Below are positions 41,773 to 59,111 of a stretch of 64,000 nucleotides of DNA, in pieces. Position 1 is the first letter of the stretch. Each line of letters starts with the position of its first letter. The position numbers and the translations under genes are program-made. Origin of the DNA: Flavobacteriaceae bacterium (GTDB lineage: Bacteria > Bacteroidota > Bacteroidia > Flavobacteriales > Flavobacteriaceae); the NCBI GenBank assembly GCA_947456955.1, contig CANGTQ010000005.1:8880-72879 (forward strand). Direction: 5' to 3'. Under the pieces are notes generated by a model. It saw nothing but the letters and a program-made list of their open reading frames with translations, was not told the DNA's origin and did no database searches.

Positions 41773-42315
41773 ATGAAAAAAGAATTTATAACGATTTTTT
41801 GTATTTTAAGCTTATCATTATTGCTTTTAAGCTTTAAAACAAAACAGAAAAACGAAAGAACCAAAATAAATATTGATTTGTCATTGGTTTTGCCTGCTCA
41901 TGTAGAAGAGCAAGAAAAATTATTTTCTATGCTTAAAAAAACCAATCCAAATTTTATTTTTTTTAGGTCTTTTTTAACTTCAAAAAGCAGAAAGGCTTTT
42001 TTTGGTGTATCAAGGTATGAAAATTCAGAACCAGAAAAATTAGATGATGTTTTTTATCAACAAACTGTAAATCATAAGGATAACAGACTTGGGAACAACT
42101 ATAAATTAATTTCTTATAGAAAATACAAAAGTGGCAATAAATATCTTTATGAAAAAGTTAGTAGCCCTAATAAGGGGCAATGTTGTGTCATGTATTACTT
42201 TATGAAAAATAATTTCAGTAATGTTATGTATGAAATAAAACTATCAGGAGAAATAAATCAAATGGAGGAAATGAGAAACATTGCTAAAAAAATTGCATTA
42301 ACTGTAAGATTGTAA
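41773..42315 (+). CDS. Hypothetical secreted/membrane-anchored protein
   Basis: 180 aa. N-terminal hydrophobic segment FITIFCILSLSLLLLSF. No recognisable domain. Confidence 0.5.
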   Translation: MKKEFITIFCILSLSLLLLSFKTKQKNERTKINIDLSLVLPAHVEEQEKLFSMLKKTNPNFIFFRSFLTSKSRKAFFGVSRYENSEPEKLDDVFYQQTVNHKDNRLGNNYKLISYRKYKSGNKYLYEKVSSPNKGQCCVMYYFMKNNFSNVMYEIKLSGEINQMEEMRNIAKKIALTVRL

Positions 42316-42430
42316 GACACTTTCCAAAAAAGTGTATAAGTTATAAATAAAGGGGTTTGACATTTTCTTTAAGTCTTGAAACCAAAGTGAACTCTTCCTG
42401 AGCGAGCAGCTATTTCAATTTATCCCAACA

Positions 42431-42610
42431 TTATTCACAAAACCAAATTTTTTCCCTGTCCACTTGTTATATAGTTCCATCTGCGTCGTTCATCATACAC
42501 TCTTTGTTGTTTTTACAATCTGAAAGTCCAAGATTATGTCCTATTTCAAGCACTAAAATAATCTTAGTTTTAAAATGGTAAACAAAGCTTTTATTAGGGT
42601 TGATAAACAT
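42431..42610 (-). pseudogene. Possible remnant of an archaemetzincin-like zinc metalloprotease C-terminus
   Basis: Own translation: MFINPNKSFVYHFKTKIILVLEIGHNLGLSDCKNNKECMMNDADGTI*QVDREKIWFCE*. It resembles the HExGHxxGLxHC...CvM...D....C end of archaemetzincins. The first His is replaced, there is an in-frame stop and no N-terminal domain. Confidence 0.35.
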
Positions 42611-42714
42611 AATTATTGTGTAAAATTCAAAATCAATTTTACAATTTTATATAGTTATCATTAAAATATTGTCAAAAATTTTGCAACTTCAAATTTTATT
42701 TATATCTCTGCAAA

Positions 42715-42831
42715 GTATTTCGAACCCATTAAGGGTACCAACCGAGTGAAGACACCACGGTGGTAAAACAATACGGACCCTCAGGTCAAAATAAACGTAA
42801 GTTTCTCGATGGCTTTTATTGATCGAAATAC
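42715..42831 (+). ncRNA. Candidate structured RNA / 5' leader of the downstream orphan operon (unclassified)
   Basis: A perfect 9-bp closing stem gtatttcga (42715-23) / tcgaaatac (42823-31) encloses several elements. These are hairpin ACCC-attaa-GGGT (42724-36), helix cca..cgag (42738-46) / ctcg.tgg (42805-12), and hairpin GACC-ctca-GGTC (42776-87). The segment is locally GC-enriched within a very AT-rich spacer. It has no ORF with a start codon and ends 30 nt before ATG 42862. Confidence 0.35.
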
Positions 42832-42861
42832 AAACTAAATTATTAATTAAAATTTGTTTGT

Positions 42862-43260
42862 ATGAAAGAATTATGTCACTTTAGATTAAAAGATAAGACA
42901 ACATTATCCTTTGAAACCATCCCTGTTGAAGTAAAACAAAATTATGTAAAAACCAAACCTTTACAGAATTATAGTTCAACCTATTTTTTTCTTTCTATTG
43001 CTCATAATCAATTAAACACTTTTATTGATTTAACTGGTTTTGAACCTTGTGTTATTCTGTATTTTGATGACAATCTATTTTTTGAAGGTGCCTCCTATTA
43101 TAGTGTTTCTTCTACTAGTTTTTATTGTATTCAAACACAATCCAAAAATATAATCTTGGCAAAACTACCACAAGATCTTCCTTTAAATTCATTATTGAAT
43201 ATTAGTACTTTAAAAGAAACTTTAAATTTTATTTCTTATGAAAACTTCCTTTCAAGATAA
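42862..43260 (+). CDS. Hypothetical protein (orphan, 132 aa)
   Basis: First ORF after the structured RNA. Overlaps the next ORF by 23 nt. No recognisable motif. Confidence 0.55.
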   Translation: MKELCHFRLKDKTTLSFETIPVEVKQNYVKTKPLQNYSSTYFFLSIAHNQLNTFIDLTGFEPCVILYFDDNLFFEGASYYSVSSTSFYCIQTQSKNIILAKLPQDLPLNSLLNISTLKETLNFISYENFLSR

Positions 43261-44095
43261 AATTAATCAATGTCAATTGGCTACTAAAGCACAAATCCAA
43301 TATTTGAAAAATTACAAAAGTAAGATTGAAGAAAGTTTAGTTTTTGATTCTTTTTTTTCAGAAAGTAAATATAAAGGTCAAGACAGCTTTTTTGAATTAT
43401 GGAATTGTTATGGATTATCTGATGATAATATGAGTTGGCTTAATTTTGGATTTCAAAGTAATGTAACATTATTTCATTCAAAGTATCATTTGATGGAAAA
43501 ATGGTTTGAAATATTATTTAGTAAAAAAATAGCTTTTAAGCCCTTTTTTGATATTGAAATTGAACATCATAACCGAATAAGAGAAAATGCAAATAAAAAA
43601 GGTATTAAAAACTTAGTATTGATTGTAGATTTTGATAAAATAGCTAAAATAATAGACGATCATTTTATTAGTGTTAGTAATTCAAAATTAAATATTAATA
43701 CAGTAAATGGCGCTACAATTACACCTCCAGCTCAAATAGACGAGGCATTAGTAGTTGTACTTTTGAATGTTTCGTATACGGATATTAGTACTATATCTGA
43801 ACTTAAAAACTGGATTTATTTAATTACAAATACTGAAAATCAAACTTTAACAGAACGCTTGTCCTATTTAAATATCTTGGCTAATTCACTAAATGAAGCC
43901 ATGAAAACTTCTGATCATGCTTTATCAAAAGCCTATTTATATGGACTGTATTCACAACTATTAAAATGGATTCATGAAACGTTAGACTTGGTAGAATGGA
44001 CTTGTGATGCTGACTATGAAAAACTACCAATACTCCTATTAAAAGAATTTAAAACGTGTAAATGTTTGCACATGTGGAAAAGTAAAAACAATTAA
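43238..44095 (+). CDS. Hypothetical protein (orphan, 285 aa, predicted mostly helical)
   Basis: Overlapping start with the upstream ORF suggests translational coupling. No recognisable motif. Confidence 0.6.
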   Translation: MKTSFQDKINQCQLATKAQIQYLKNYKSKIEESLVFDSFFSESKYKGQDSFFELWNCYGLSDDNMSWLNFGFQSNVTLFHSKYHLMEKWFEILFSKKIAFKPFFDIEIEHHNRIRENANKKGIKNLVLIVDFDKIAKIIDDHFISVSNSKLNINTVNGATITPPAQIDEALVVVLLNVSYTDISTISELKNWIYLITNTENQTLTERLSYLNILANSLNEAMKTSDHALSKAYLYGLYSQLLKWIHETLDLVEWTCDADYEKLPILLLKEFKTCKCLHMWKSKNN

Positions 44096-44121
44096 TTCAA
44101 AACAAATTACAATATAATAAG

Positions 44122-44556
44122 ATGAAAAATATAGAACAATCAAATTGGTGGGAACACAACCATTTTATCAATGGTTATGGTAAATTCCCTTATGTAATAT
44201 TAAAAGTTGGGTATGCATTATTTATGCAAATTCCGATACACTTCAATAAGAATAATGATATAATCAATTACCCAGGTAGCCATATCAATGGTGTTTCTGA
44301 AACAGATTTAAAAGCCTATGAGTATAACAAATTAAGTTCACTGCACGAAAAAATCATCGAGCATTGCAAATGGATGAAAAATAAAATTGAAGCTGACCGA
44401 GGCGGAACTGTAAAAATGTGCTTGGTAGAAGGACCAGATGTTTCGTATTATTTTGAAGGAGATACAATAGACTTTAGCACGAATATACCTGGTGGAGGCA
44501 CTTTACTCACTCAAGATCATAAAGTAATTGGAATGAATGTCAAACATTATTTATAA
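44122..44556 (+). CDS. Hypothetical protein (orphan, 144 aa)
   Basis: 26 nt after the previous ORF. No recognisable motif. Confidence 0.55.
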   Translation: MKNIEQSNWWEHNHFINGYGKFPYVILKVGYALFMQIPIHFNKNNDIINYPGSHINGVSETDLKAYEYNKLSSLHEKIIEHCKWMKNKIEADRGGTVKMCLVEGPDVSYYFEGDTIDFSTNIPGGGTLLTQDHKVIGMNVKHYL

Positions 44557-44670
44557 CTAAAACTAAAAACAAACGCTTATGTAAAAACAAAGAATTTAAG
44601 GTTAAACAAAAAAGTCAAAGAAGAAATAATCCCATTCCCATTTTTAATTTTAATTTTAAAACCAAATAAC

Positions 44671-45384
44671 ATGATTGTAATTAAATCAGAAGCCTTTATT
44701 ACTGATAAGGGTAAAAGTGAAATTAATGAAGATACCCTGAAGTGTCAGTCGGGTAAATTTTATGTCGTGTGCGATGGTGTAGGTGGAAATGGGAATGGAT
44801 TATTAGCCTCTCAATTGCTTGTTGAATCTGTAGCAAATTCTTTGTCTCATTCTGAGGATTTAGTCATAGCTATTGCTTTAAAAGAAGCTGAAAAAGCTTT
44901 AGAGGATTATAAAAGGAAAAATAAAAATACGTATCTAATGGCCAGTACCCTTGCCTTAACCAAAATTACTGATTCTTCAATACTCATTGGATGGGTTGGT
45001 GACAGCAGGGTGTATCAATTTAGAAATGGTAAAATTATATACAAAACCACAGACCACTCCTGGATTAGTGATGCTATAAAAGGAGGAAGTATTACAGCGT
45101 TAGAAGGACTTTTTCACCCGGAACGCAATAGATTAACAAGAAGTGTAAAAGGGAATTCGCAACCCACTGTAATGGATGAACATATACTAACTAATTTAGA
45201 AGACAATGACTATATTCTAATTTGTTCGGATGGTATTATGGAATCATGGATTGATGAAGATTTAGAAAACTTGTTTTCTGAAGTAAAACCTGCCTCCTAT
45301 TTCGTTCAAAAGCTTCATGAAAATTGCCAACTTTTTTCTAATGACAATTATACTGCTATAGTCTATCAAATAAGTAAATTATAA
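44671..45384 (+). CDS. PP2C-family serine/threonine protein phosphatase
   Basis: NEDT, VVCDGVGGNGNG, WVGDSRVY, DHSW, LICSDGI, a PPM metal-binding motif series. No cognate kinase in the window. Confidence 0.85.
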   Translation: MIVIKSEAFITDKGKSEINEDTLKCQSGKFYVVCDGVGGNGNGLLASQLLVESVANSLSHSEDLVIAIALKEAEKALEDYKRKNKNTYLMASTLALTKITDSSILIGWVGDSRVYQFRNGKIIYKTTDHSWISDAIKGGSITALEGLFHPERNRLTRSVKGNSQPTVMDEHILTNLEDNDYILICSDGIMESWIDEDLENLFSEVKPASYFVQKLHENCQLFSNDNYTAIVYQISKL

Positions 45385-45405
45385 AATTATAAAATTATTA
45401 AACAT

Positions 45406-45813
45406 ATGATCTCAAAAGAATTATTACTGGGTTACGAAGCTACATGTTATAGTATTCTAAATCCTAAAATCGATATTTATCTCGGTAAAGAAAATGAAGC
45501 ATTACAGTCTTTTTTAAAAGAACATGATTTCAAATCTTGGTGCTTCATAACGGCTTGGAATCCTTTTTCAAAAGCACTATCCGTTGAAGAAAACATAGCG
45601 TTGAATTCACTTCTTGAACAAGACTTAACCCATTATGCTGTATTTGCTGCAGAAGGTAAAGACACCATAGGAAATTGGCCTCCTGAAATCAGTTTTTTTG
45701 TTGGTAATATTTCGAGAGAAGACACCATCTATTTGGGAAAGAAATACCAACAAAATGCAATCGTTTTTGGCGAAATCAATGAATCGGCAGAGCTAATTTT
45801 ATTAGTTGATTAA
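45406..45813 (+). CDS. DUF3293-like protein
   Basis: 135 aa. WCFITAWNPFSKALSVEENIALNSLLEQDL...WPPEISFFVGNIS...QNAIVFG pattern recalled from the DUF3293 family. Assignment from memory of the family signature. Confidence 0.5.
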   Translation: MISKELLLGYEATCYSILNPKIDIYLGKENEALQSFLKEHDFKSWCFITAWNPFSKALSVEENIALNSLLEQDLTHYAVFAAEGKDTIGNWPPEISFFVGNISREDTIYLGKKYQQNAIVFGEINESAELILLVD

Positions 45814-45905
45814 ATAAAATTCATAATCACTTATCATCAATGTGTAGAAGCAAAAATAATTTAAAGAGTATAAAAGTATTGTTGTTTAAATAATCAAATA
45901 TAAAT

Positions 45906-46652
45906 ATGAAATTTAAAAAGAGTATTTTCTTTATAGTAACTGTATTAATATTGAGTTGTAGTATCTATTTCTTTAAAGAAAAGTGGTATCCACTTCTAAA
46001 GCGATATTATAGTAAGTACAATAAAATAACCAATCGTGAAGATATTATTTACGACACTAAAACAGCAGTCTGGGGGATTGATTTATCTCATCATCAAGGT
46101 GATGTCAACTGGGATAAACTGGTAACAAGTAAGCCCCATTTTGTTTTTTGTAAAGTAACTGAAGGAAAATCACATAAAGACACCAAATATAATTATCACC
46201 GCACCCAGGCAAGAAAAAACAACATCAAAATGGGTGCCTATCATTTCTTTAGTTACAATAGTTCTGGTAAGTCGCAAGCAAACTATTTTATAAAGCATGC
46301 CAAATTACAAAAGGGAGATTTACCCTATGTATTGGATGCAGAGTATATGCCTAAAATGCCAAATAGGAAAGCGGTTACCAGGGAACTACTCTCTTTTTTA
46401 CAAACCGTTGAAAAGCAAACAAATGTTAGACCCATACTATACTGTGATAAGAATTTTTATGCTAAATATATAAAAGGATACACTAAAAAAGAATATACAC
46501 TATGGTTATGTGATTATAACAGAAAACCCAATATACCCCATTCATTCTGGCAAAAAACTGATAAATTTAAAGTAGAAGGAATATACGGAAATGTTGATTT
46601 TAATGTTTTTAACGGAAACAAAGAGCAATTACAACAATTAACAATAGACTAA
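45906..46652 (+). CDS. GH25 muramidase (lysozyme) with N-terminal membrane anchor
   Basis: N-terminal TM SIFFIVTVLILSCSIYFF. GH25 motifs WGIDLSHHQGDVNWDKL, CKVTEG, GAYHFF, LDAEY. Confidence 0.85.
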   Translation: MKFKKSIFFIVTVLILSCSIYFFKEKWYPLLKRYYSKYNKITNREDIIYDTKTAVWGIDLSHHQGDVNWDKLVTSKPHFVFCKVTEGKSHKDTKYNYHRTQARKNNIKMGAYHFFSYNSSGKSQANYFIKHAKLQKGDLPYVLDAEYMPKMPNRKAVTRELLSFLQTVEKQTNVRPILYCDKNFYAKYIKGYTKKEYTLWLCDYNRKPNIPHSFWQKTDKFKVEGIYGNVDFNVFNGNKEQLQQLTID

Positions 46653-46654
46653 TT

Positions 46655-47053
46655 TTGGCTCCAATCAAAAAAAAATATCAAAGAAAGGTTACTGACATTG
46701 CTACATTGCATTATATCAACTTAGATGGGATGAAAATTACTCTTTTTTCTCCCTATGAAGTAATGGTAAATGAGCTACTTTCTATTGGGGTTAATCCGAT
46801 GGGGAAAACTATTAAAGAATTGCAAATAGAAGTGAGCGAAATTATTCTTAAACACTATATGGATTGCCATTATGGAAAACGTTATATAGCTGGTAATTCA
46901 GAAAACAATAGGATAGATAGATACAATCAAAAAAGGGTAATTATACATCATTTAAAAGAACTTTCTTATTGGCTATATGATTACGATTCTAAAAAAATGC
47001 CTAAAAACATAAAGTTCGATTTTGAATTACATAGAAAACATAATACAACCTAA
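46655..47053 (+). CDS. Hypothetical protein (orphan, 132 aa; TTG start, alternative ATG 105 nt downstream)
   Basis: Starts 2 nt after the GH25 stop. No recognisable motif. Confidence 0.45.
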   Translation: MAPIKKKYQRKVTDIATLHYINLDGMKITLFSPYEVMVNELLSIGVNPMGKTIKELQIEVSEIILKHYMDCHYGKRYIAGNSENNRIDRYNQKRVIIHHLKELSYWLYDYDSKKMPKNIKFDFELHRKHNTT

Positions 47054-47646: not shown

Positions 47647-48351
47647 TTATAGTTTACTTAGTACTTCATACAATTGCCGCATGCCATTCGTAGCTTTTTC
47701 AGAGAGGTAGTAAATAGAACGTTCGTCGTCAATATCCATTTCGTGTGCTAGTGGGTCGATTACTACCATTTGGCTAGCAAAAGGCACATAGTGCGGCAAG
47801 GCATTTGCAGGACTTACCATTAAAGACGTTCCAACTACTACAAACACAGAACAGGTAACGGCTTCTTTTATAGCGGCATCATGAATGGATTGGTCTAATC
47901 CTTCACCAAAAAATACAATATGCGGTCGGAGTTGAGAATTTTGGTCACAAAGGTCGCCTATAAGTACATCTCCTTCCCTATCGTATAGTAATTTAGGATC
48001 AGCTGTTGAACGCGATTTCATGAGTTCGCCGTGCAAATGAATAACTTTGGTTGAACCTGCACGCTCGTGGAGGTTGTCTACGTTTTGGGTTACTATAACT
48101 ACTTCATAGTTTTCTTCTAATTTAGCTATGAGTTCGTGCGCTAAATTAGGCTGTGCTTCGTGGCATTGTTTTCGGCGTTGGTTGTAAAATTCAAGTACAA
48201 GCCCCGGATTGTTGTTCCATGCTTCTGGGGTGCAAACGTCTTCTATTTTGTAATTATCCCAAAGACCGTCTTCAGAGTCTCTGAAAGTTTGCAAGCCACT
48301 CTCGGCTGATATACCGGCTCCTGTGAGGAAAAGTAATTTTGGTTTTTTCAT
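47647..48351 (-). CDS. SIR2-family NAD-dependent protein deacylase-like protein
   Basis: FLTGAGISAESG, FRD..GLW, TQNVDNLHERAG, HLHGE (catalytic His), VVGTSLMV. Short Bacteroidota-type sirtuin without zinc-ribbon cysteines. Confidence 0.88.
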   Translation of the reverse strand: MKKPKLLFLTGAGISAESGLQTFRDSEDGLWDNYKIEDVCTPEAWNNNPGLVLEFYNQRRKQCHEAQPNLAHELIAKLEENYEVVIVTQNVDNLHERAGSTKVIHLHGELMKSRSTADPKLLYDREGDVLIGDLCDQNSQLRPHIVFFGEGLDQSIHDAAIKEAVTCSVFVVVGTSLMVSPANALPHYVPFASQMVVIDPLAHEMDIDDERSIYYLSEKATNGMRQLYEVLSKL

Positions 48352-48386
48352 GGGTAGAATTCTTTATTAAAAGAGATCAAAATCTA

Positions 48387-51300
48387 TTAGACTTTTTTAG
48401 CCATTTCTATGAATCTACAAAAAGGATTTGCCAATTTAATTTGTTTCGGCGATTTACAATCGGGTTCAAAAATTGAATTATTAGAAACCATAATAAAAAT
48501 AGCTTTAGCCCTTGATACTGCTACATTAAACCTATTAGGAGAATACAGAAAGTCCATACCTCTTGGTGCATCTTCTGGAGAAGAAGTGGCTACGGAATAA
48601 ATAATCACCGGAGCTTCTTGTCCTTGAAATTTATCAACTGTCCCAATGGACACATCATTAATTTGATCTACAAGTTTTTGAACCTGAGCATTGTATGGAG
48701 AAATGATTTTAATATCCTTTTTAGTTATACTATTTTCTTCTCCTTTACTTGAAATCCATTTCACATCACCTTTGGTTAACTCATTGACAATGTCCAATAT
48801 TACATCTGCCTCTTCTTGTGATGAATTAGTATTTCCTTTATGTTCAACATTTACATAGAATAATCCAGAACCTTTAAATTTAGTATTCCCTATAATTGAT
48901 TGGTTTGCCAGCTCAGGACGAACACTTAATTTTTTTTCATAGAACAACTCTGAATTTAATTCACAAATTTCAGGATGCATTCTCCAGGTTTCTTTTAAGA
49001 AGACTCCTTGTTCAGGTGCTATAGTTTTATTTCCGTTAATAACATGTTCCAAAGCAGAAACTTCTGTTCCTTCAGGATGAACACCCTGTTGAGGCTGTTG
49101 CAATTGTTGAGGATCACCCAATAAAATTATGTTTTTAGTAGATTTTGAAATAGCGAGGGTATCAATTAAAGCCAATTGACCTGCTTCATCTACAAACAAA
49201 TAATCTACAGTATCATTAAAACTTGGTGTACTCCACATAAAACTAGTACCTGCAATTAAATTTACTTCATTCAATTTTGTTTGTATTACTTTTTTATCGG
49301 TAGTAATAGTCCATGGATAAAATTCTTCACTGATACTCGATACTTTTTGGATCATATTTATTTTTAATCCAATTTTATCAGCTTCGGATTGAATTTTCTC
49401 TAACAATCCTGTAATTACTTTATGTGATAAAGCCGTTACCCCTATTTTCTTATTAGCTTGTATTAGTCTAATTATCATATTACTTGCCGTATAACTTTTA
49501 CCCGTACCCGGAGGTCCTTGAATGGAGAGAATAGAGTTATTTAGTTTAGCTGCCCAATCACTTGCCAGTTCTAATGTATCATCTGTGTTTATTACTTCAT
49601 CAATTGTACTAGGTATATTTCTTAATAATAAATCCCTAGCCGCTCTGTAGTTAGGCAAATCAGAATCAAAACCATTATCTACAATCCATTGTGCTAATTC
49701 AATTATAGCATTTTCTTTATCAACTGTTTTAATGTCATCAAAAGGAAATATAGCTATAGGATGCTCGCCAATTCTTGCGTTTCCTCGTTTGATTTTAACT
49801 TCTCTTTTAATCAAATCAATACTTTCAATTGTTCCTGCTGCATCACCATTTTGATTTTTAATTTTAGCATTCTTTTTAATCTCTCCTTCTTGATAAGGAA
49901 AAGTATAGGTTTCTATAGTACTTCTTAAAACAATTTCAGATTGACCTGTATATTGCAAATAACTCAAAGCTGTTTTTTCTTCTAACAATTCATCTGTGGA
50001 AAGATTTTTCAATCTATAATACTCCCACAAAAATGATTTCATCTCCCGGCGATACCAGTTCAACATGTGAGCTAAAATAAATTTAGCCTTATCAATGCTG
50101 GTAATTCGTTCATCACTATTTTCTGAAACGCCTTGCATTAATGCATCGAAGATGGGTTTTATTCTTTCCATATGAGCATTATTTTTTTCATTTGCTTCAC
50201 CTGGTTTAATTTCAGGTCTCGTAATTACAACCCCTTTATCAATCAATTCTTTTCTTAAAGACTCTAACCATTTATGTAATCGTTCTGTACTTATACAATC
50301 ATCTTGATTGTATAATTGAATACCGTCAATCATTTCTTGGGTAATCTCTTCAAACTTTTGAGTTTCTAATAAAAATTCATATTCTGCCTTTATTTTAGAC
50401 AAGGCTCTTAAATCCATTTCCCTAGTATATCCAAAAAATTTCTCTAAATCTTTAATTGAATATTTTTCTACACTTGCTCTAACGGATTGTCTTACTACAC
50501 CGTATAAATCAATAAATTTACCGGCTCTTAAATAGGAATCTATTTCCGTTTCACAAGTAGCATATTTACTCATCAATCGTTTAAAAGCAGTCTTTTCATA
50601 AGGGGCATAATGATAAATATGCAAGTGCGGTTCTTCAACTAATTTAGCCTCTGCAAATGAGATAAATGTTTCAAATGCTACTTTTTCTTCCTCTTCATTT
50701 TTTGCCCAAATGGGATAATATTTACCTTCACAGTACCATCCAAATAGATATTCTAGACCTCCTGGCTCTATCATTGGATCTCCTTCTAAATCCAAATAAA
50801 TATCGTGTTTTGTCGGTTCAGGAAGTTTATTAAACCCCATTTCAACTTCTACAGCTAATGTTTCATATATGTTACGAGATTCTACTCTGCCTTTGTATTG
50901 AACTTTGGCTTGTTCTCGTAATTTTCGGTAAGTATCTATGGCACCTTTTGTTGGAGTGAAATCAACAGGAATCTCCCAATTGGCAAAGCCTTCAAGAGTG
51001 TTAATTTGATGGGATTTGACCTCTTTTATCTGTGCTGTTCCCATACCAGCAACAAAGCCGAGATGATCATCTTTACGTCTTCGCTTATTACAATCCTCCC
51101 ACCAATTGCATATATCACAATGAGTAATAGGCTCAGGGTAAGTATCTTTTTCAATTTCGATACTATCTATCAATCGTTTTTTTGCTAATCTTACAAATGA
51201 AATATAATCATCAACTCTATATTCTATTTTGCACTCAGGATTTTGTACCCACATTTTTTCAGGCATCTTTCCCTGAATAACACCTATTTTTTCTGAATAA

Positions 51301-51746
51301 AGTGCAATTTGTAAAATTGTGCCGGCACGAGTTTCAGTGGCTAATTTAGTATCTAAAACTTCGTATGACCAATTTCCTAACTTGCTTGGTGTATCTACTT
51401 TTAAAATAAAATCAGCCCAACCACCCCAAATTCCATTTTCAACTAATCGTGCTTGATATATAACATCAACACCATTCTCCATAGCGGAAATGGTATCTTG
51501 TTCAGTATTGCTATTCTCTTGATTGATTTCAACAATAGATTTACCCTCAAGACGTAATTGTTGTAAAAAGGATTCTTCAAATTTTAGTCCTCTTTCTCGC
51601 AACATATCTAAAACTCTATTCTGATATACTGGCTTTTTCAGTTCCCCTAAAGCAGCTTTTTTATTCAAATTAGTTAAATGTTTGCAACTAATGTGATTGG
51701 CTAAATCAGATGGGGAGAATATTATATTATCATTTACTTTTTTCAT
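48387..51746 (-). CDS. TM0106-family RecB/Cas4-like nuclease fused to SF1 (Upf1/DNA2-like) helicase
   Basis: 1119 aa. N-terminus FSPSDLANHISCKHL, PD-(D/E)xK ADFILKV...YEVLDTKLA, Cys cluster HCDICNWWEDC. Middle segment IYLDLEGDP (RNase-H-like). C-terminus Walker A GPPGTGKSYT, Walker B VDEAGQ, LGDPQQL, ISPYNAQV, TVDKFQGQE, NVAVSRAK. Confidence 0.88.
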   Translation of the reverse strand: MKKVNDNIIFSPSDLANHISCKHLTNLNKKAALGELKKPVYQNRVLDMLRERGLKFEESFLQQLRLEGKSIVEINQENSNTEQDTISAMENGVDVIYQARLVENGIWGGWADFILKVDTPSKLGNWSYEVLDTKLATETRAGTILQIALYSEKIGVIQGKMPEKMWVQNPECKIEYRVDDYISFVRLAKKRLIDSIEIEKDTYPEPITHCDICNWWEDCNKRRRKDDHLGFVAGMGTAQIKEVKSHQINTLEGFANWEIPVDFTPTKGAIDTYRKLREQAKVQYKGRVESRNIYETLAVEVEMGFNKLPEPTKHDIYLDLEGDPMIEPGGLEYLFGWYCEGKYYPIWAKNEEEEKVAFETFISFAEAKLVEEPHLHIYHYAPYEKTAFKRLMSKYATCETEIDSYLRAGKFIDLYGVVRQSVRASVEKYSIKDLEKFFGYTREMDLRALSKIKAEYEFLLETQKFEEITQEMIDGIQLYNQDDCISTERLHKWLESLRKELIDKGVVITRPEIKPGEANEKNNAHMERIKPIFDALMQGVSENSDERITSIDKAKFILAHMLNWYRREMKSFLWEYYRLKNLSTDELLEEKTALSYLQYTGQSEIVLRSTIETYTFPYQEGEIKKNAKIKNQNGDAAGTIESIDLIKREVKIKRGNARIGEHPIAIFPFDDIKTVDKENAIIELAQWIVDNGFDSDLPNYRAARDLLLRNIPSTIDEVINTDDTLELASDWAAKLNNSILSIQGPPGTGKSYTASNMIIRLIQANKKIGVTALSHKVITGLLEKIQSEADKIGLKINMIQKVSSISEEFYPWTITTDKKVIQTKLNEVNLIAGTSFMWSTPSFNDTVDYLFVDEAGQLALIDTLAISKSTKNIILLGDPQQLQQPQQGVHPEGTEVSALEHVINGNKTIAPEQGVFLKETWRMHPEICELNSELFYEKKLSVRPELANQSIIGNTKFKGSGLFYVNVEHKGNTNSSQEEADVILDIVNELTKGDVKWISSKGEENSITKKDIKIISPYNAQVQKLVDQINDVSIGTVDKFQGQEAPVIIYSVATSSPEDAPRGMDFLYSPNRFNVAVSRAKAIFIMVSNNSIFEPDCKSPKQIKLANPFCRFIEMAKKV

Positions 51747-51814
51747 GCGATTATTTTATTTTATAAGAGCTAACTATCTAATTAATATAATTTAAGCTAA
51801 ATTTACTTTTGATT

Positions 51815-53185
51815 TTACTTTATTAACTCATATCCTTTAGCACTTACTACTACTATTCTATTTTCGGCTGTTTTTATAAGTTTTTCCATTTTAGTTAATT
51901 TGGTTTCGATTTTTACTAATTCTCTATCTTCAGTATACTTTGTCAAATCATAACAAAACAATTCTTCAGTGGTTAACAAGTACAAATTATCTTCCACAAT
52001 AAAAAAGTCCCTTAAAGAATGTTTTAAAATAATTCTATTATTCCACTCCTTCTCTTCTTCTAAGTATAAATCATATTCTTCTTTACCAATTCGAATTAAC
52101 TCGTCTTTTTCCTCTTGTGATTTATTATTCCACTCTTCTATACTGGCAAAAAAATAATCAGACTCATTAAATTCATTTTCATTTTTAGGGTTAGCTAATT
52201 CATCAAGAATTCTTAATCTTTCTCTTTCTTGGTATTCTTCTTCCCATTTGCGTTTCATATATAAAGGTTCCCGCTCAGGTTCATTTGGGTTAAAATAATT
52301 CTTTTTACCCTCTTTATTATTTATTTCAGCAGTAAAATCAGGGCTATAAAATGATTTTGTTTTATTTTTTGATTGCAATTCTAGAAATTCTTCTACTGTG
52401 TAAGAATCAATTGCTTCATCTTTTAAAGGATGTGCTAAATCATTATCATCACAACAAGATTCTGGTTTGATTTCAGTTGATTGTCTGTACTGTACTGACT
52501 CTTCTGACTCATCTAAATATTCTATCTTTATACTCGTTTCACCAAAAATGGTCAAATGTTGGGCACAACCAAAACTACCAACTGTAGATGATTTGATTCC
52601 TAACCATTTTTCATTCCCATCTCCTTTTACAATATGCTCGTATGTGCCATTATCAGGGAGATTAATTGTATTGGTATGAATTGGAACCCTAGGATTTGAA
52701 ATGTCAAATTCAAAAATATACTTAGGAAACACTATATTGTCTAATAAAATCAACTTATTACCTACAATAACAATATCATCAATTGCTTTGTTTTTTACAG
52801 CTACTATAGGTAAATTAATTTGTTTGAATTTAAAGTCAACTTGACTTAAGTCTAATAAAGAGCAAAGCTCTCCTAAATCGTTCTTTTTCTTTTTATAGGT
52901 TCCTCCCAGGTATACCACATCTCCTTTTATGGCAATCGAACTAAAATTAAATTGATTATTAAAACCTATGTACTCACCATTTTCTCTATACATTTTTAAA
53001 GCCTTTTCTTTAAAGTTGATAGAAACAAATATTTCATGTTTTTGACAATAAACGGTCTTGGAAACATAAGGAATATCAATTGGTCCTAAGTTTACAATTT
53101 GATTATTCTCTATTGTAGCAATAACGCTTTGTGTTTTTTGCGGGATTACAAATAGGTTTTTCATAAAGATTCTATTCAATTTCAA
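51815..53185 (-). CDS. Hypothetical protein (orphan, 456 aa) translationally coupled to sbcC
   Basis: ATG overlaps the sbcC stop by 14 nt (alternative ATG at 53164). Beta-rich N-terminal half and C-terminal about 70 aa are separated by an acidic KE-rich insert (WEEEYQERERLRILDE...EEEKEWNN). Confidence 0.6.
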   Translation of the reverse strand: MKLNRIFMKNLFVIPQKTQSVIATIENNQIVNLGPIDIPYVSKTVYCQKHEIFVSINFKEKALKMYRENGEYIGFNNQFNFSSIAIKGDVVYLGGTYKKKKNDLGELCSLLDLSQVDFKFKQINLPIVAVKNKAIDDIVIVGNKLILLDNIVFPKYIFEFDISNPRVPIHTNTINLPDNGTYEHIVKGDGNEKWLGIKSSTVGSFGCAQHLTIFGETSIKIEYLDESEESVQYRQSTEIKPESCCDDNDLAHPLKDEAIDSYTVEEFLELQSKNKTKSFYSPDFTAEINNKEGKKNYFNPNEPEREPLYMKRKWEEEYQERERLRILDELANPKNENEFNESDYFFASIEEWNNKSQEEKDELIRIGKEEYDLYLEEEKEWNNRIILKHSLRDFFIVEDNLYLLTTEELFCYDLTKYTEDRELVKIETKLTKMEKLIKTAENRIVVVSAKGYELIK

Positions 53186-56100
53186 TTGTGCTATATCCGG
53201 CGCCCGTTTTTAATAATTTTATTTTGGTCCCTATTCGATCTTTTAATTCGCCCACATGCGAAATTATCCCAATAGATTTATTGCTTTCATTTTGCATATT
53301 TTCGAGGATTGTAATGGCTTGGTCTAGAGATTCTGGATCTAGAGAACCAAATCCCTCATCTATAAATAATGATTCAATATTAACATTACGAGCAGCTAAA
53401 TCGGATAACCCGAATGCTAATGCCAAACTCAACTTAAATGTTTCCCCACCTGATAAAGAAGTTACACTACGTTTTGAATTACCCATGTATGTATCGATAA
53501 CCTGTAAGGCATCTGAATCATTAGCAACTTCCAATAAATAGCGGTCAGAAAAGCCAGCTAATCTTTTATTACCGTATTCGATAAGTTGGCGCAATGTTAA
53601 ATCTTGAACAAAATTGGAGAATTTTTTTCCTTGACCGTCACCAATAAGTGCATTCATTTTACTCCATAAACTTAAATCTTTGAGCAAAGCATCTAGTGTC
53701 TCTTGACTTTTTTGGAGTCTTTGTTTATTTTCTTCATTTACTTTGATTTTTTGTTCCTGGTCCCAAATGTGTTTTTGGAGTTCGGATATTGCCTCTGACA
53801 ATTTTGGAAGCAATTCAATTAATTCATCTAAAGTAATAGAAGTATCGTCTAATTTGTTTTCTTCTTCTAAAATTTGATCTGTTGCAGTTATAGTTGTTTT
53901 TAAAGCTACTTCGCGAGTTTTTATTTCAAGAGATTCACTACGGATTTCTGCCGCTTTTGTTTCGTCTAATAATTTAGCCTTTAATTCTTCCAATGACTTA
54001 ATCCCTTTTGATTCTAATTTAGAAAATAGAAATTCGGATAAACTTTTATGAGTGTCTATTGCAATTTTTAGATTTTCTTGATTTGCTTTAATTTGCAAAC
54101 TCAACCCCTTTATAGAAGAATTACATAGTACAAAGTTTGTTTTTAATGTATTTACTTCTGTATTGATGTCATTCCCATTATAAATTGAATTACGAATATC
54201 TTTTGCTTTTATATATTCTTTATTTAAAAGCAAATGGTTATTATAGGTATTTTTTAAATCTTCTAAACCTTTAAATGCTTGAAACTTTTTTTCTAATATA
54301 TCCAGTTCACTTTGCTTTTCTTGATAAGTTGTAAGCCCTGCTTCCCATTCCACAATTAGAGAATTCAAATTCCAATTTAGTTGATCGCAAAGTGTTTTAA
54401 CATCAGTTTCTTGGCTAATAAAATCGGTAGATTGTGTTTTTAGTTTATCAGCATCTGTCACGCCTAATTCTTTCAAATTTGTAATATTCCCAATTAATTT
54501 AAAGTGTTCCTTTTGATACGTATTTAACTCAGAAGATAATACTTCCCATTTTTCTTGTAAGGCATTGATTAATGCTTCTTCAATATTTTCAGAATATGGA
54601 TGGCTTTCCGAACCACACAAAGGACATGGTTTACCCTCTTCAAGTTCACTACGATGCTGGTCTAAACTCTTGCGACTTTTCCAATCTTCCAATTCTGCAG
54701 CTGCTATTTTAACTTTTGGTTCTACTACCTCTATTTTTGTTTTTAATTGTTTTTCTTCTTCAATTGCTTCAGCTAATTTTTCTTTTTGGGAAGCAATGTT
54801 TTTGGTTAGTGATTCTATTGCTTCTTTTTTTGAATCATATAATTTTCGTTTGCTTATTAATTGGGTTGCTGGTAAAATTAAATTTGCAAATTCTATTTTT
54901 TTAGACAAAACCTCTTCTATTGTACATAATCCACTTTGCTTTATTAATATTGAAATTGAATTTATTTCTTCCTGAATTTTTTCATATAATTCTTCATTTA
55001 TCTTTAATAAAATTCCAAAAGGAACAAGAAATTCTAATTTGTCTTTTAATCTTTGAAATTCCTGCTCTGTTTTTGAAAGTTTTGATTGCTCATCATTTTG
55101 CAAGGCAACAACTTGCTTTAAAAACGAATCCAATTCTAATTCAAAATCTGTTTCGGTAATTGTTTTACCAATTAATTTCGATGCCAAAACAATATTGGCG
55201 GCCTTTTGATTCTCAAAAGTCCTACGATTCTCATCTAAAGTAAATATAGTTTCAGAAAGTTTTGATGCAGTATTCTTATACTGTTCTATTTGATTCATTT
55301 CATCACGAAAAACAACTAAATCGTCATGTATAACCAACTTATTTTCTTGGGATGCAAATGCTTTTTGCAGTTCTAAAAATGCAGCCCAATCAGCTTGATT
55401 TTTTTCTTTTATTAATTGATTTTTTTGAATACTCTCTTTAATTACTTTTTTATCATTAAAAGATTTATGTTTGGTCTTTTCTACTTCCAACAATGGCATA
55501 TTCGTATTAATGTCAGCATTAATTTTGTCAATTTCTTCTTGTTCCAAAAGAACGGTTTCTCCCATCTTAGTTTTTTGAATCTCAACCGATTCTTTTACTT
55601 CCCTATACCGTTCAAAAACCAATACACCAATTCTTCGATAGACAGAAGAACCTGTGATCTTTTCTAAAATTAAATTGCGTTCATCTTTCTTTGCCAATAA
55701 TAATTTAGAAAATTGACCTTGAGCCAAAATCATAGACTGGACAAATTGATCGAAATTCAATCCAATTATTTCTTCATTTTTCTTAACAACATCCTTTATT
55801 CCAGAGACAATAATTGCATTTGTTTCAACGTTCGTTAAATCTTGTTTTCTACTATCTAGGGTACCTGTTCTTGTCCGTCTAATAGACCAATTAGAACGGT
55901 ATTTTATTCCTTTGACTTCATATTCAATTTCAGCAAAACAGTCAAGTGCATTTTTAGTCAATATAACTCCTTCTTTTTCTATTATTGATTCAGTAATTGC
56001 TGAATCAATTCTAGGAATTCTATTGAATAATGCTAAGGTAATTACATCCAAAATAGATGATTTTCCGGTACCTGTAGCACCCGTAATCACAAAAAGTCCA

Positions 56101-56189
56101 GATTCGCCAAGAACTCCATTTTCAAAATCAATTTCGTGTTCTCCTTTTAGAGAATGTATATTTTTAAATTTTACTTTACAAATTTTCAT
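53172..56189 (-). CDS. sbcC: SbcC/Rad50-family ATPase
   Basis: 1005 aa. Walker A ITGATGTGKSS, long coiled coil with zinc hook GKPCPLCGS, signature SLSGGETF, Walker B LFIDEGFGSLD. Confidence 0.9.
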   Translation of the reverse strand: MKICKVKFKNIHSLKGEHEIDFENGVLGESGLFVITGATGTGKSSILDVITLALFNRIPRIDSAITESIIEKEGVILTKNALDCFAEIEYEVKGIKYRSNWSIRRTRTGTLDSRKQDLTNVETNAIIVSGIKDVVKKNEEIIGLNFDQFVQSMILAQGQFSKLLLAKKDERNLILEKITGSSVYRRIGVLVFERYREVKESVEIQKTKMGETVLLEQEEIDKINADINTNMPLLEVEKTKHKSFNDKKVIKESIQKNQLIKEKNQADWAAFLELQKAFASQENKLVIHDDLVVFRDEMNQIEQYKNTASKLSETIFTLDENRRTFENQKAANIVLASKLIGKTITETDFELELDSFLKQVVALQNDEQSKLSKTEQEFQRLKDKLEFLVPFGILLKINEELYEKIQEEINSISILIKQSGLCTIEEVLSKKIEFANLILPATQLISKRKLYDSKKEAIESLTKNIASQKEKLAEAIEEEKQLKTKIEVVEPKVKIAAAELEDWKSRKSLDQHRSELEEGKPCPLCGSESHPYSENIEEALINALQEKWEVLSSELNTYQKEHFKLIGNITNLKELGVTDADKLKTQSTDFISQETDVKTLCDQLNWNLNSLIVEWEAGLTTYQEKQSELDILEKKFQAFKGLEDLKNTYNNHLLLNKEYIKAKDIRNSIYNGNDINTEVNTLKTNFVLCNSSIKGLSLQIKANQENLKIAIDTHKSLSEFLFSKLESKGIKSLEELKAKLLDETKAAEIRSESLEIKTREVALKTTITATDQILEEENKLDDTSITLDELIELLPKLSEAISELQKHIWDQEQKIKVNEENKQRLQKSQETLDALLKDLSLWSKMNALIGDGQGKKFSNFVQDLTLRQLIEYGNKRLAGFSDRYLLEVANDSDALQVIDTYMGNSKRSVTSLSGGETFKLSLALAFGLSDLAARNVNIESLFIDEGFGSLDPESLDQAITILENMQNESNKSIGIISHVGELKDRIGTKIKLLKTGAGYSTIEIE

Positions 56190-56212
56190 AATGATGAATT
56201 GAGCTTATTGAA

Positions 56213-57430
56213 TTATTCTATTGAAGTTGAATCACCTATTTTTTCCAAGATTTCTTTAAATGCAAAAATTAATTCTTCTGTATTTTCTAAAGAATCATCT
56301 TGTTCCAATCGCTTTTCAAACAATTGAACAGGTGAAAAATCGCCAATATCTTCACCTGCGTTAAGCAAAACAGAAGTGCCTACTAACTTGTTTTTAAAAT
56401 TAATACGTCCTTTCAAAATTTGGAAGCCTTTTTGTGCTTCGGCTGTTAAAAGTTCCTCCAACATTCGAATATGCTCTATATTTTCATTTTCCTCTTCAAT
56501 TAAAAGCTCTATCAAATCAGTCAGAGGCGATTCTGTATTATACGACTCGAGACTGTATTTAACTTCGGCTAAAGTGCCTTCCATACGAATCAACTTTCTG
56601 AATTTAGGAATTTTGATAGAAGAAATTTCAAAATTATCTCCTTGAAGTTCTAAAATTACGACTTCCTTTTGGTCATCTTTTTCACTAAAACTTAATTGAA
56701 TGGGTGAACCACTATAACGGATGTGATCCAGGCCAACAATTTGAGGTTTGTGTATGTGACCTAAAGCAACATAATTTGGTGTATCTCCGAAAATTTTAGC
56801 CTCTACTCCTGCTTGATTACCTATTTGGATTTCTCTTTCACTTTCAGACACTATCGCGCCTTGAGCATATAAATGAGCCATTACTATAAATGGAATTCCT
56901 TTATAATTTATGGAATAATACTCATTTACCTTAGCAAAATAATTTGCAATACCACAACGAATTAATTCAATTTTATCTTCATATGATTCACCAGGAAGTG
57001 CATTTCTAATATCTTTATCTCTCAAAAAAGGAATGGCAGCTACAACTACCTTTTGATTGTCAATTTCAATTTCAACAAATAATTCAGAAATATCATTAGG
57101 TACACCGCCCACAACTTTGATTTCTAAAATTTCTAGAAGTTCTTTTGGTGCATTTATAACATGGGGAGAATCATGATTCCCTCCTGTTAGTATTACCTTA
57201 CACTTTAATGGTAATAGCTGCTTTAAAAAGGAATAATACTGTTTCATTGCCGCTTGAGAAGGATTGGCTTGGTCAAACAAATCACCTGACATTAACAATA
57301 CATTGATATTGTTTTCTTGAATAGTATTAATTAACCATTCAAAAAAAAGATCCATATCATCTGAAAAATCAACTTTTAACAATTGTTTTCCAATATGCCA
57401 ATCGGCAGTGTGTAATATTTTTAATCTCAT
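56213..57430 (-). CDS. sbcD: SbcD/Mre11-family nuclease
   Basis: HTADWHIG, SGDLFD, GGNHDS, MAHL, GHIH calcineurin-like phosphoesterase motifs. 405 aa. Confidence 0.9.
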   Translation of the reverse strand: MRLKILHTADWHIGKQLLKVDFSDDMDLFFEWLINTIQENNINVLLMSGDLFDQANPSQAAMKQYYSFLKQLLPLKCKVILTGGNHDSPHVINAPKELLEILEIKVVGGVPNDISELFVEIEIDNQKVVVAAIPFLRDKDIRNALPGESYEDKIELIRCGIANYFAKVNEYYSINYKGIPFIVMAHLYAQGAIVSESEREIQIGNQAGVEAKIFGDTPNYVALGHIHKPQIVGLDHIRYSGSPIQLSFSEKDDQKEVVILELQGDNFEISSIKIPKFRKLIRMEGTLAEVKYSLESYNTESPLTDLIELLIEEENENIEHIRMLEELLTAEAQKGFQILKGRINFKNKLVGTSVLLNAGEDIGDFSPVQLFEKRLEQDDSLENTEELIFAFKEILEKIGDSTSIE

Positions 57431-57441
57431 AATTTATAATC

Positions 57442-58071
57442 TTACCATGGTTTTATTTTCATATAATAATCCAAAAATGCTTTTACTAATAAGTCGGTTG
57501 GAGTTTCAACTTTTAATGTTTGACTAAAAATAACTAACTCTTGTGCAATACGAATGACTTCCTTTCTGGCGACTATATCTTTACATCCAGAAACATCATA
57601 ATGCCAACCAAACTTTATTAAATATTCTTTAAATCGATGACGCTCTTCGGGCAAATAGAAAAACCTATTATAATCCAACACATCAACATCATATAAAATT
57701 TGTTCTTCCAAAAGTTTGTCATTATCTTTTAATATCATAATAGATGTTTTATAAGCATATTCACTATCAAAACCTTTTCTACTTAAATAACTGTAGCATA
57801 TTCTAGAACTCTTAAATTCCCATAAATCCTCTCCATTATCTTGTCGTGCGGAATCATGAAATAAAATAGCGTAAAATGATTTTTCAATATCAATAGTAAC
57901 TTTATGCTTTTTATAATAGCAATACATCAAATCTGCCAAAAGTAAACACCTTATAATATGAAATCTACCATGAAAACTTTCTAAATCAAAAGTTTCTTCA
58001 TGTTTTTGATATAAAGACGCTATTTCATCTTTAAAGAAATTAAGGGCATTATTTAATTGTGATGATACCAT
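57442..58071 (-). CDS. HD-domain-like phosphohydrolase (uncharacterised)
   Basis: 209 aa. H...H (FHGRFH) then LFHDSAR (HD dyad) and a later DVDVLD. Stop is 11 nt before the sbcD start. Confidence 0.55.
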   Translation of the reverse strand: MVSSQLNNALNFFKDEIASLYQKHEETFDLESFHGRFHIIRCLLLADLMYCYYKKHKVTIDIEKSFYAILFHDSARQDNGEDLWEFKSSRICYSYLSRKGFDSEYAYKTSIMILKDNDKLLEEQILYDVDVLDYNRFFYLPEERHRFKEYLIKFGWHYDVSGCKDIVARKEVIRIAQELVIFSQTLKVETPTDLLVKAFLDYYMKIKPW

Positions 58072-58172
58072 TTAAATCATTTTTTTTGTTTATGTATAAT
58101 TGAAGCTTACAATTTTAAGCAATAATGTTGTTTTAAAAATTTTAATACAATTATAGTTATCAATTACTTTAA

Positions 58173-59111
58173 TTAATCTTTTAATATATAAATTAATTCA
58201 TCTATTTTCTCTTTTTCAAGTATAGGTAAAATCCAACTTTTTGGAATTGCAGCATAACCATAAAACAAACCTGCCAATCCTCCCGTTACAGCTCCCGTTG
58301 TATCGGTATCGCCACCTAAATTAACGGCTTTTAGAACAGCGTCTTCATAAGTATCTGTAGTTAACAAACACCAAATACTGGCTTCTAATGTTTGAATGAC
58401 ATATCCACCACTTTGGATTAGATTTTCATTTAATTCATAAATATTTCCGTTAATAAGTCTGTCAAAATGGGGTAATTCAACGCTGTAAATTTTATTAGAA
58501 TTTAAAAACTCAGGGACAGTTTTTTTAAGATTTTCATAAATCTCAAATTTGTCTTTACCTTCCATTAGTTGTAATGCAAACTCTAAGTAATAGAAACAAG
58601 AAATAACAGAACGATTATGTGCATGGGTAATGGATGAAGCTTCTTTTACTAAGTCAAAACGTTTCTCGATACTTAAATCTTTAAGTAGCAATGCTAATGG
58701 TAATATCCGCATTAAGGAACCATTACCATTATCAATTTCATTTTGACCTCCAGCGAGGTTTGGATGAACTCCTTTACTAAGATTGATGATCGATTGCCTT
58801 GTCGTATTTCCAATATCAAATACTTCTCCCGTTGCGGTCCAATAGCCTTCATTTTTCCATTTGATAAATTTACTGGCTAATCTATGGATGTCATATCCTT
58901 CAACAATAGATTCTGCCAAACAAAAAGTTAGCGAACTATCATCAGACCACACTCCTATTCCTTGGTCATGTACACCTCCAGAACCCATTTTTGTTACTGG
59001 ATTATTCTTTAAATATTCCCTACTCTCAAATTCAACAGGGACACCCAAAGCATCTCCCACGCAAACCCCATAGAGAATGTCTTTCAAATAATTTCTTGTT
59101 ACCCTATCCAT
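58173..59111 (-). CDS. ADP-ribosylglycohydrolase (ARH/DraG family)
   Basis: GVCVGDALGVPVEF, WSDDSS, GGDTDTTGAVTGGLAGLFYG. Confidence 0.88.
   Translation of the reverse strand: MDRVTRNYLKDILYGVCVGDALGVPVEFESREYLKNNPVTKMGSGGVHDQGIGVWSDDSSLTFCLAESIVEGYDIHRLASKFIKWKNEGYWTATGEVFDIGNTTRQSIINLSKGVHPNLAGGQNEIDNGNGSLMRILPLALLLKDLSIEKRFDLVKEASSITHAHNRSVISCFYYLEFALQLMEGKDKFEIYENLKKTVPEFLNSNKIYSVELPHFDRLINGNIYELNENLIQSGGYVIQTLEASIWCLLTTDTYEDAVLKAVNLGGDTDTTGAVTGGLAGLFYGYAAIPKSWILPILEKEKIDELIYILKD

Follow-up and report, generated by a model that had tools for sequence, protein, structure and literature searches.

A SAM-I/IV riboswitch subtype with a probable start-codon switch ahead of orphan operons in Flavobacteriia

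Riboswitches of the SAM-I clan (Rfam clan CL00012) bind S-adenosylmethionine (SAM) in a ligand pocket built of two coaxial stacks, an architecture common to SAM-I or S-box (RF00162) and SAM-IV (RF00634; PMC6890682). SAM-I has a kink-turn (K-turn) in P2 and a P4 inside a four-way junction; SAM-IV has a split P2 (P2a/P2b) and two pseudoknots, PK-1 and PK-2, the latter pairing the P3 loop with the 3′ tail (PMC6890682). In a further class, SAM-I/IV (RF01725), P2 has no internal loop and no pseudoknot is formed at its tip (Weinberg et al., 2010; PMC2864571, Additional file 1). Here, we analyse a leader element in a 64,000-nucleotide (nt) stretch of DNA from a Flavobacteriaceae bacterium (GenBank assembly GCA_947456955.1, contig CANGTQ010000005.1, positions 8,880 to 72,879; hereafter the window), and report that by its sequence it is a SAM-I/IV riboswitch, which probably controls translation of the operon behind it by hiding the first start codon when SAM is bound. 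SAM-I/IV riboswitches are usually located upstream of genes for the metabolism or transport of SAM or methionine, whereas this element precedes uncharacterised island genes. A first-pass annotation of the window had picked out positions 42715-42831 as a GC-enriched, multi-helix RNA belonging to no riboswitch class it could name, either a cis-regulatory leader or an RNA component of the downstream system.

The segment is a member of a known RNA class rather than of a new one. Scanning of the whole window against Rfam with cmscan gives a single match, to SAM-I/IV, at 42710-42803 on the forward strand; it covers model positions 1-99 of 99 and, with 52.8 bits, exceeds the gathering score of 41.1 (E = 8.4e-6 over the whole window, 6.6e-8 locally), and SAM-I/IV is kept as the best model within clan CL00012. 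A clean match to a known family is exactly the outcome that the first-pass annotation had named as speaking against its own proposal, and the proposal of an unmatched or new class is refuted by it. Matches above the gathering score (44-54 bits) were obtained in ten of ten independently retrieved homologous loci (including L003-L008 and L129-L131), one of which, L129, belongs to a Flavobacterium aciduliphilum isolate and scores 49.1 bits. Every homologous locus with upstream DNA (L003-L008) has the same match at the same distance from the ATG, with compensatory changes in P2 and P3.

The helices of the aptamer can be placed on the forward strand of the window. P1 is formed by GUAUU (42715-42719) and AAUAC (42770-42774), as indicated by the Rfam alignment and by pair counts. 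P2 is a hairpin, ACCC/GGGU (42724-42736), without an internal loop; across relatives its stem has 4-7 bp and its loop varies. P3 (42737-42764), taken from the Rfam alignment, carries the CAACC/GGUG pocket and a 4-nt apical loop. The P4 hairpin GACC/GGUC (42776-42787, Rfam alignment) is placed outside the junction, 3′ of P1, and after it comes the A-rich tail AAAAUAAACG (42788-42797), in agreement with the Rfam consensus, which has an A-rich 3′ tail as well; this arrangement is the one that RF01725 requires. Thus the element has in common with SAM-I/IV the P1-P2-P3 core with CAACC/GGUG in P3, a P2 lacking internal loop and K-turn, a P4 located 3′ of P1 with an A-rich tail, and a covariance-model score over the curated threshold. 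Neither the K-turn and four-way-junction P4 of SAM-I nor the split P2, PK-1 and PK-2 of SAM-IV is present. The nucleotides forming the ligand pocket throughout the SAM-I clan are all there (A-U/U-A pairs in P1, a G in J1/2, CAACC and GGUG in P3), and they point to SAM as the probable ligand. Unlike the SAM-I/IV reference, the subtype has a 4-nt P3 loop, in a subset of leaders a pairing between the P4 loop and the linker, and a deviant J1/2: this reads UCGAA in the window and 86 relatives in place of the consensus AAGAG, with the G kept and the first two positions changed. Two of the hairpins, ACCC/GGGT and GACC/GGTC, had been noticed at first pass and are the P2 and P4 of the aptamer; the GC enrichment reported there is likewise real (0.44 in the Rfam match, 0.27 in 42001-44000), and the segment does end 30 nt before the ATG at 42862.

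Relatives of the leader were collected by scanning metagenomic contigs for the exact core pattern ACCAACC N10-20 GGTGGTAAAACAATACGG. At least 120 contigs matched, from which 117 distinct leader contexts and finally 86 distinct complete leaders (alignment A2) were derived; unless stated otherwise, the counts below refer to these 86. Since the pattern fixes much of P3 and J3/1, those columns are invariant by construction and carry no information on structure, and the invariance of the pocket nucleotides is partly imposed in the same way. Homologous loci were also gathered starting from proteins: L003-L008 through the 132-amino-acid (aa) open reading frame (ORF) that follows the leader, and others later through a 144-aa protein and distant members of the family to which the 132-aa protein belongs (family A). 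A protein-pattern scan of the metagenomic contigs for the 132-aa ORF gave no match, where the DNA pattern of the riboswitch core succeeded. The core pattern had no match in IMG/VR and the leader none by blastn in GenBank phages and PLSDB plasmids; within the scope of these collections, it is therefore not a phage or plasmid element. One contig (L045) carries two copies of the leader, at 2921-2960 and 6642-6681, 3.7 kb apart and each preceding its own family A gene; therefore, one genome can carry several such units. In another element (L012 1618-1780, and the same element in L021), aptamer copies have no expression platform left; beyond the A-rich tail come a GC-rich hairpin and a run of T (aaaaaacgccaagcttgcttgagcgttttttt) that resemble an intrinsic terminator, and there is no ORF at the usual distance.

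The order of elements is the same throughout the alignment: GUAUUUCGAA, P2, P3, AAAACAAUAC, P4, the nearly invariant AAAAUAAACG, a variable linker, (A/U)UCGAAAUAC, and finally ACAAAUAA-loop-UUAUUUGU-AUG. When the aptamer is taken together with a hairpin at the start codon, here called the sequestor, 97.0% of cells are paired and nine pairs have changed on both sides; none of 500 shuffles does as well, a figure inflated by the relatedness of the leaders to one another, and pairing falls to 31-46% when the partners are slid. P1 is paired in 99.5% of cells. All four pairs of P2 and two of P4 have changed on both sides, and in P3, most columns of which are fixed by the search pattern, a compensatory change from U-A to A-U occurs in 10 of the leaders. 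The sequestor is paired in 98.0% of cells with two pairs changed on both sides. A helix that competes with P1, anti-P1, is paired in 96.2% of cells (96.0% for the anti-P1 state overall), with two pairs changed on both sides, four in wobble form only, and compensatory variants such as GUAUUCCGAA/UUCGGAAUAC and GUAUUCAGAA/UUCUGAAUGC. Covariation thus supports P2, P3, P4, anti-P1 and the sequestor. The first-pass annotation had proposed looking for covariation in spacers upstream of homologs of the 132-aa ORF, and those spacers do have conserved helices with compensatory changes in P2 and P3.

A further tertiary contact is suggested in the leaders with a long P4 loop, in which complementarity between this loop and the linker covaries (UGUCU:AGACA, UGUCC:GGACA, CCUCU:AGAGG and RCCAA:UUGGU), and the native pairings exceed the permuted ones in 500 of 500 permutations. 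Close relatives of the window leader have the linker sequence GAGG(G/A)C, complementary to the P4 loop CCUC. The corresponding strand in the window, GA(U)GG (42808-42812, forward strand), could pair with CCUC at 42779-42782, weakly and with the U bulged out. We consider this pairing a candidate pseudoknot. Pseudoknots from the P2 or P3 loop were looked for and rejected, because of the shortness or variability of these loops and for want of any complementarity.

How could such an aptamer act on the gene behind it? The leader is best described as the 5′ leader of the operon mRNA, in which the aptamer would be followed by a translational expression platform of three helices, P1, anti-P1 and the sequestor, competing for shared strands. 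The 5′ switching strand GUAUUUCGA (42715-42723) can pair with its first 5 nt as P1 and with all nine as anti-P1, whose 3′ strand is UCGAAAUAC (42823-42831); the 5′ strand of anti-P1 thus contains that of P1, and its 3′ strand shares AUAC with the sequestor. The sequestor (42828-42863) consists of AUACAAAC (42828-42835) and GUUUGUAU (42856-42863), and covers the A and U of the AUG at 42862. In every leader the AUAC common to anti-P1 and the sequestor is at the same position, and in all of them the conserved hairpin has a 3′ arm that reaches into the AUG and ends there, TTTGTATG being invariant. Without SAM, the 9-bp anti-P1 would prevail over the 5-bp P1 and occupy the AUAC that the sequestor needs, so that the start codon would be exposed and the operon translated. 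With SAM bound to the aptamer, in which P2, P3 and P4 are held closed by P1, P1 would be locked, releasing the anti-P1 strand; the sequestor would then extend over the AUG and block translation of the first gene. From this logic it follows that the operon would be expressed when cellular SAM is low.

Folding with ViennaRNA agrees with such a relay. Forcing of P1 extends the sequestor hairpin over the AUG: the mean unpaired probability of positions -4 to +3 at the AUG rises from 0.12 when P1 is forced to 0.40 when its 3′ strand is blocked, and the rise exceeds 0.1 in 73 of the 86 leaders. On average, the P1-forced state lies 3.3 kcal/mol above the unconstrained one, as it should if the balance is to be tipped by ligand binding, and this is a gap that the ligand could close. 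No intrinsic terminator was found in the window leader. Upstream, a putative Bacteroidetes-type -7 promoter motif, TATCTCTG (42703-42710, forward strand), ends 4 nt before the riboswitch with one mismatch to the consensus TAnnTTTG. A sigma-70 promoter scan is uninformative for Bacteroidetes, and this motif was counted directly instead: of 82 related leaders, 59 have TAnnTTT[G/A] at precisely this spacing, 4 nt before GUAUUUCGA.

We therefore take the leader, with good confidence, as a SAM-I/IV riboswitch with a translational platform, an OFF switch that would hide the start codon in the presence of SAM; what it binds, which way it switches and at which level it acts are inferred. An OFF switch acting on the AUG itself fits Bacteroidetes, which do not rely on Shine-Dalgarno (SD) sequences. 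The same logic operates in SAM-III (SMK box) and SAM-II/SAM-V, where binding of SAM hides the translation initiation region. These translational OFF switches have unrelated folds and sequester the SD within the aptamer itself, whereas in the window leader a separate three-helix platform would hide the AUG with no SD-like sequence involved.

Several observations, in addition to the inflated shuffle statistics, weigh against this reading. In the minimum-energy fold of the window leader, anti-P1 and the full sequestor are in part present together, so that the predicted amplitude of the switch is modest, the modelled accessibility changing from 0.15 to 0.37 only. J1/2 has UCGA in place of the AAGA of the family consensus. 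The P3 loop has only 4 nt (NAGN), is closed by a covarying helix and finds no complement in the tail, because of which the PK-2 of the SAM-IV architecture cannot form here. PK-2 is reportedly present in SAM-I/IV, too. Finally, among the at least 120 loci, no SAM-metabolism gene was found behind the leader, either in the main clusters or in 62 further downstream proteins.

The last three of these points are also what commends the alternative that survives best, in which the fold is that of SAM-I/IV and the subtype has shifted its specificity to another, probably SAM-related, molecule matching the biology of the orphan operons, such as S-adenosylhomocysteine, a SAM derivative, or a nucleotide-SAM conjugate like the SAM-AMP signal of Bacteroides type III CRISPR. 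Deviant downstream genes have signalled altered ligands in other riboswitch classes, and it was in this way that variants of ykkC and of the guanine class came to be seen as new ligand classes; in addition, PK-2 is lacking, a candidate P4-loop pseudoknot is seen in a subset, and a separate SAM-II variant with "long loops" has been reported in Bacteroidetes. However, all nucleotides of the SAM-I clan that are known to contact SAM are retained, the score is well over the family threshold, and the first two positions of J1/2 also differ between members of the original SAM-I/IV alignment (e.g., CUCCAG). On these grounds, a shifted ligand seems unlikely.

That SAM is sensed and control is exerted mainly on transcription or on mRNA stability, by Rho-dependent termination or RNase access, appears rather unlikely as well. 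The sequestor differs by only four base pairs between the two states and the modelled effect in the window is modest, both of which would suit such control, and translational riboswitches are often coupled to Rho. Against this stand the lack of an intrinsic terminator in the leader and the two constant features of the alignment, a hairpin arm ending within the AUG and an AUAC at a fixed position shared by anti-P1 and the sequestor. Least of all, we give hardly any credence to a new class of multi-helix RNA or a trans-acting component of the downstream system folded as drawn at first pass, for although that drawing is near the computed minimum free energy structure of 42715-42831 and its closing stem is conserved, the segment has a clean Rfam match, the stem is explained as anti-P1, the internal helix occurs in a single leader, and the element base-pairs with the start codon of the mRNA that carries it.

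The drawing itself can now be understood. Its closing stem, GTATTTCGA (42715-42723) with TCGAAATAC (42823-42831), is indeed perfectly complementary over 9 bp, and the segment that it encloses does fold unusually well (-32.3 kcal/mol, z = -3.19; 0 of 200 dinucleotide shuffles as good). What was missed are P1 and P3, the helices that define the aptamer. In their place stood an internal helix, 42738-42746 with 42805-42812, which is complementary in 1 of the 86 leaders, that of the window, and clashes with the conserved P3; taken literally, the drawn fold would destroy P3 and was rejected. Essentially, the drawing appears to be the ligand-free conformer, with anti-P1 closing a loop that contains P2 and P4. 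The suggestion of a riboswitch-like, cis-regulatory leader was borne out by the fixed distance to the first start codon and the compensatory changes in every homologous locus examined, and no evidence was found for the RNA as a component of the downstream system, given its pairing with the start codon and the putative promoter motif 4 nt before it.

The regulated operon probably spans 42862-47053 on the forward strand. Seven ORFs follow the leader: a 132-aa family A protein (42862-43260), a 285-aa protein (43238-44095), a 144-aa family B protein (44122-44556), a PP2C phosphatase (44671-45384), a DUF3293 protein (45406-45813), a GH25 muramidase (45906-46652) and another 132-aa protein (46655-47053), the PP2C, DUF3293 and GH25 assignments being from Pfam. 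In L003-L008 and F. aciduliphilum the same leader again precedes this gene set; in F. aciduliphilum, a single leader is followed by A, a 94-aa protein, B, PP2C, a 129-aa protein, FGase, DUF3293, a 133-aa protein and a 295-aa protein. Across riboswitch-led loci the first gene is most often of family A (45 cases), followed by C (11), D (10), B (nine) and an FGase-family amidohydrolase (five), the remainder being rarer orphans, and these families recur in shuffled orders and as A+B fusions. The 62 further downstream proteins include C5 DNA methylases, PLD, HipA, GmrSD, HepT with an MNT-type nucleotidyltransferase, Gp49, UmuDC-like proteins and Bro-N.

No match in Pfam, NCBIfam, PADLOC or PHROGs was obtained for the terminal 132-aa protein, the 285-aa protein or the families A, B, C, D, E and G, nor for the orphan proteins in sequence profiles of the Protein Data Bank (PDB); library searches recognised only PP2C, DUF3293, GH25 and FGase among the operon proteins. 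With PADLOC the operon gave only a weak match of PP2C (PDC-M21C, 1e-7), and none for DUF3293 or the others. The family of the first 132-aa ORF is very small (12 clusters, 61-97% identity), and one member is located in a Flavobacteriaceae metagenome-assembled genome; family A as a whole comprises 67 clusters and family B 214, all annotated as hypothetical. The AlphaFold models of families A and B are both confident. That of family B (pLDDT 81.5, pTM 0.78) found no Foldseek match in PDB (best E = 2.9) or BFVD (best E = 0.58), and its fold may be undescribed; G20, F22, P23, Q36, P38, G52, P123, G125 and H142 are among its invariant residues. The family A model (pLDDT 82.5) is a beta-sandwich, the best matches of which are structures of unknown function (3pjy, TM 0.60; 3m7a). 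In a family C protein of 194 aa (L009) and a family G protein of 196 aa (L052), the C-terminal motifs CPFSNHGH...YGCGWCKKKG and CLFHNRRH...CRCAHGSG resemble the CHC2 zinc finger of DnaG-type primases, with no Pfam match.

The neighbourhoods are defence- or mobile-island-like in five of the seven that were annotated. In the window, a defence-like cluster on the reverse strand (47647-59111) converges with the operon. It includes SIR2 (47647-48351), an MkoA/MkoC-like helicase of 1119 aa (48387-51746), a 456-aa protein without assigned function, an SbcC-like ATPase of 1005 aa (53172-56189), a Metallophos protein (56213-57430) and an ADP-ribosylglycohydrolase (58173-59111); a leucine-rich-repeat (LRR) protein comes next (59484-60989). 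Elsewhere, a type III restriction-modification (R-M) system and pEK499_p136 (L005), PLD and a resolvase (L006), or an MmeI-type R-M system, an SNF2 helicase and a tyrosine integrase (L130) are found nearby. At locus P0064 (JGI 3300059473), a riboswitch-type operon (123 aa, then a 146-aa family B protein and further genes) is flanked on one side by a TOTE-type conflict system (HisKin-conflict, iREC, PIF1/TBP-TOTE and S1CSD-TOTE) and on the other by SNF2, DUF4391 and a double-methyltransferase cluster. The F. aciduliphilum locus and L131 have ordinary neighbours. The link of the operon to defence or mobile islands is one of guilt by association.

As an RNA the element is an ordinary result, a known class found at once by an Rfam scan. 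The leader adds a covariation-supported example of riboswitch translational control in Bacteroidetes, in which a three-helix relay would hide the AUG itself. What appears undescribed is a Flavobacteriia subtype of a known class dedicated to island-borne orphan operons: more than 100 examples make up a regulon of shuffled protein families, often beside R-M, toxin-antitoxin and other conflict genes, and the literature searched contained no paper linking SAM-I/IV riboswitches to Flavobacteria orphan genes or defence. Tentatively, the subtype may be the sensor of unrecognised modular island-borne systems (A, B, C, D, E, G, the 285-aa protein, PP2C, FGase and DUF3293) that turn ON upon collapse of SAM. 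In one version, a guard of rather low probability, phage SAM lyases would disarm neighbouring R-M or BREX-type systems by destroying SAM and the riboswitch would convert this loss directly into expression of a back-up defence or abortive-infection operon; a second version, with the subtype sensing a different SAM-derived signal, is less likely. Were these readings true, there would be new biology either way, an island-encoded response to SAM starvation or destruction, or an altered ligand.

Under the guard reading, and under it only, the system would be comparable to guard-type triggers such as PrrC guarding EcoprrI, retron Ec48 guarding RecBCD and PARIS sensing Ocr, in which the disabling of host defence by a phage sets free a function encoded on an island; in the present case, a phage SAM lyase would set it off by destroying SAM, the cofactor of R-M and BREX. 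Known guard-type sensors are proteins or complexes of retron non-coding RNA and protein, whereas here a metabolite riboswitch would be the immune sensor. Moreover, none of the operon proteins matches a known defence family save for the weak PP2C match.

Two minor observations concern the borders of the operons. At L131, a tRNA gene (12264-12348, forward strand) and a Flavo-1 RNA (RF01705, 51.1 bits; 12387-12456, reverse strand) are found about 0.9 kb beyond the riboswitch-led operon, whose last gene ends at 11391, with a 242-aa gene on the minus strand in between, and this suggests a tRNA-linked insertion site. In the window, a remnant of a peptidase M54-like gene is found upstream of the leader on the reverse strand (42413-42574), a truncated pseudogene fragment from which the rest of the gene is missing. 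It was detected by tblastn with a 213-aa protein of F. aciduliphilum (L129 2998-3639; residues 157-210, 74% identity, E = 1e-26), the gene of which lies divergently upstream of the operon in that genome, and the putative promoter region of the window (42663-42720) is 93% identical to its F. aciduliphilum counterpart.

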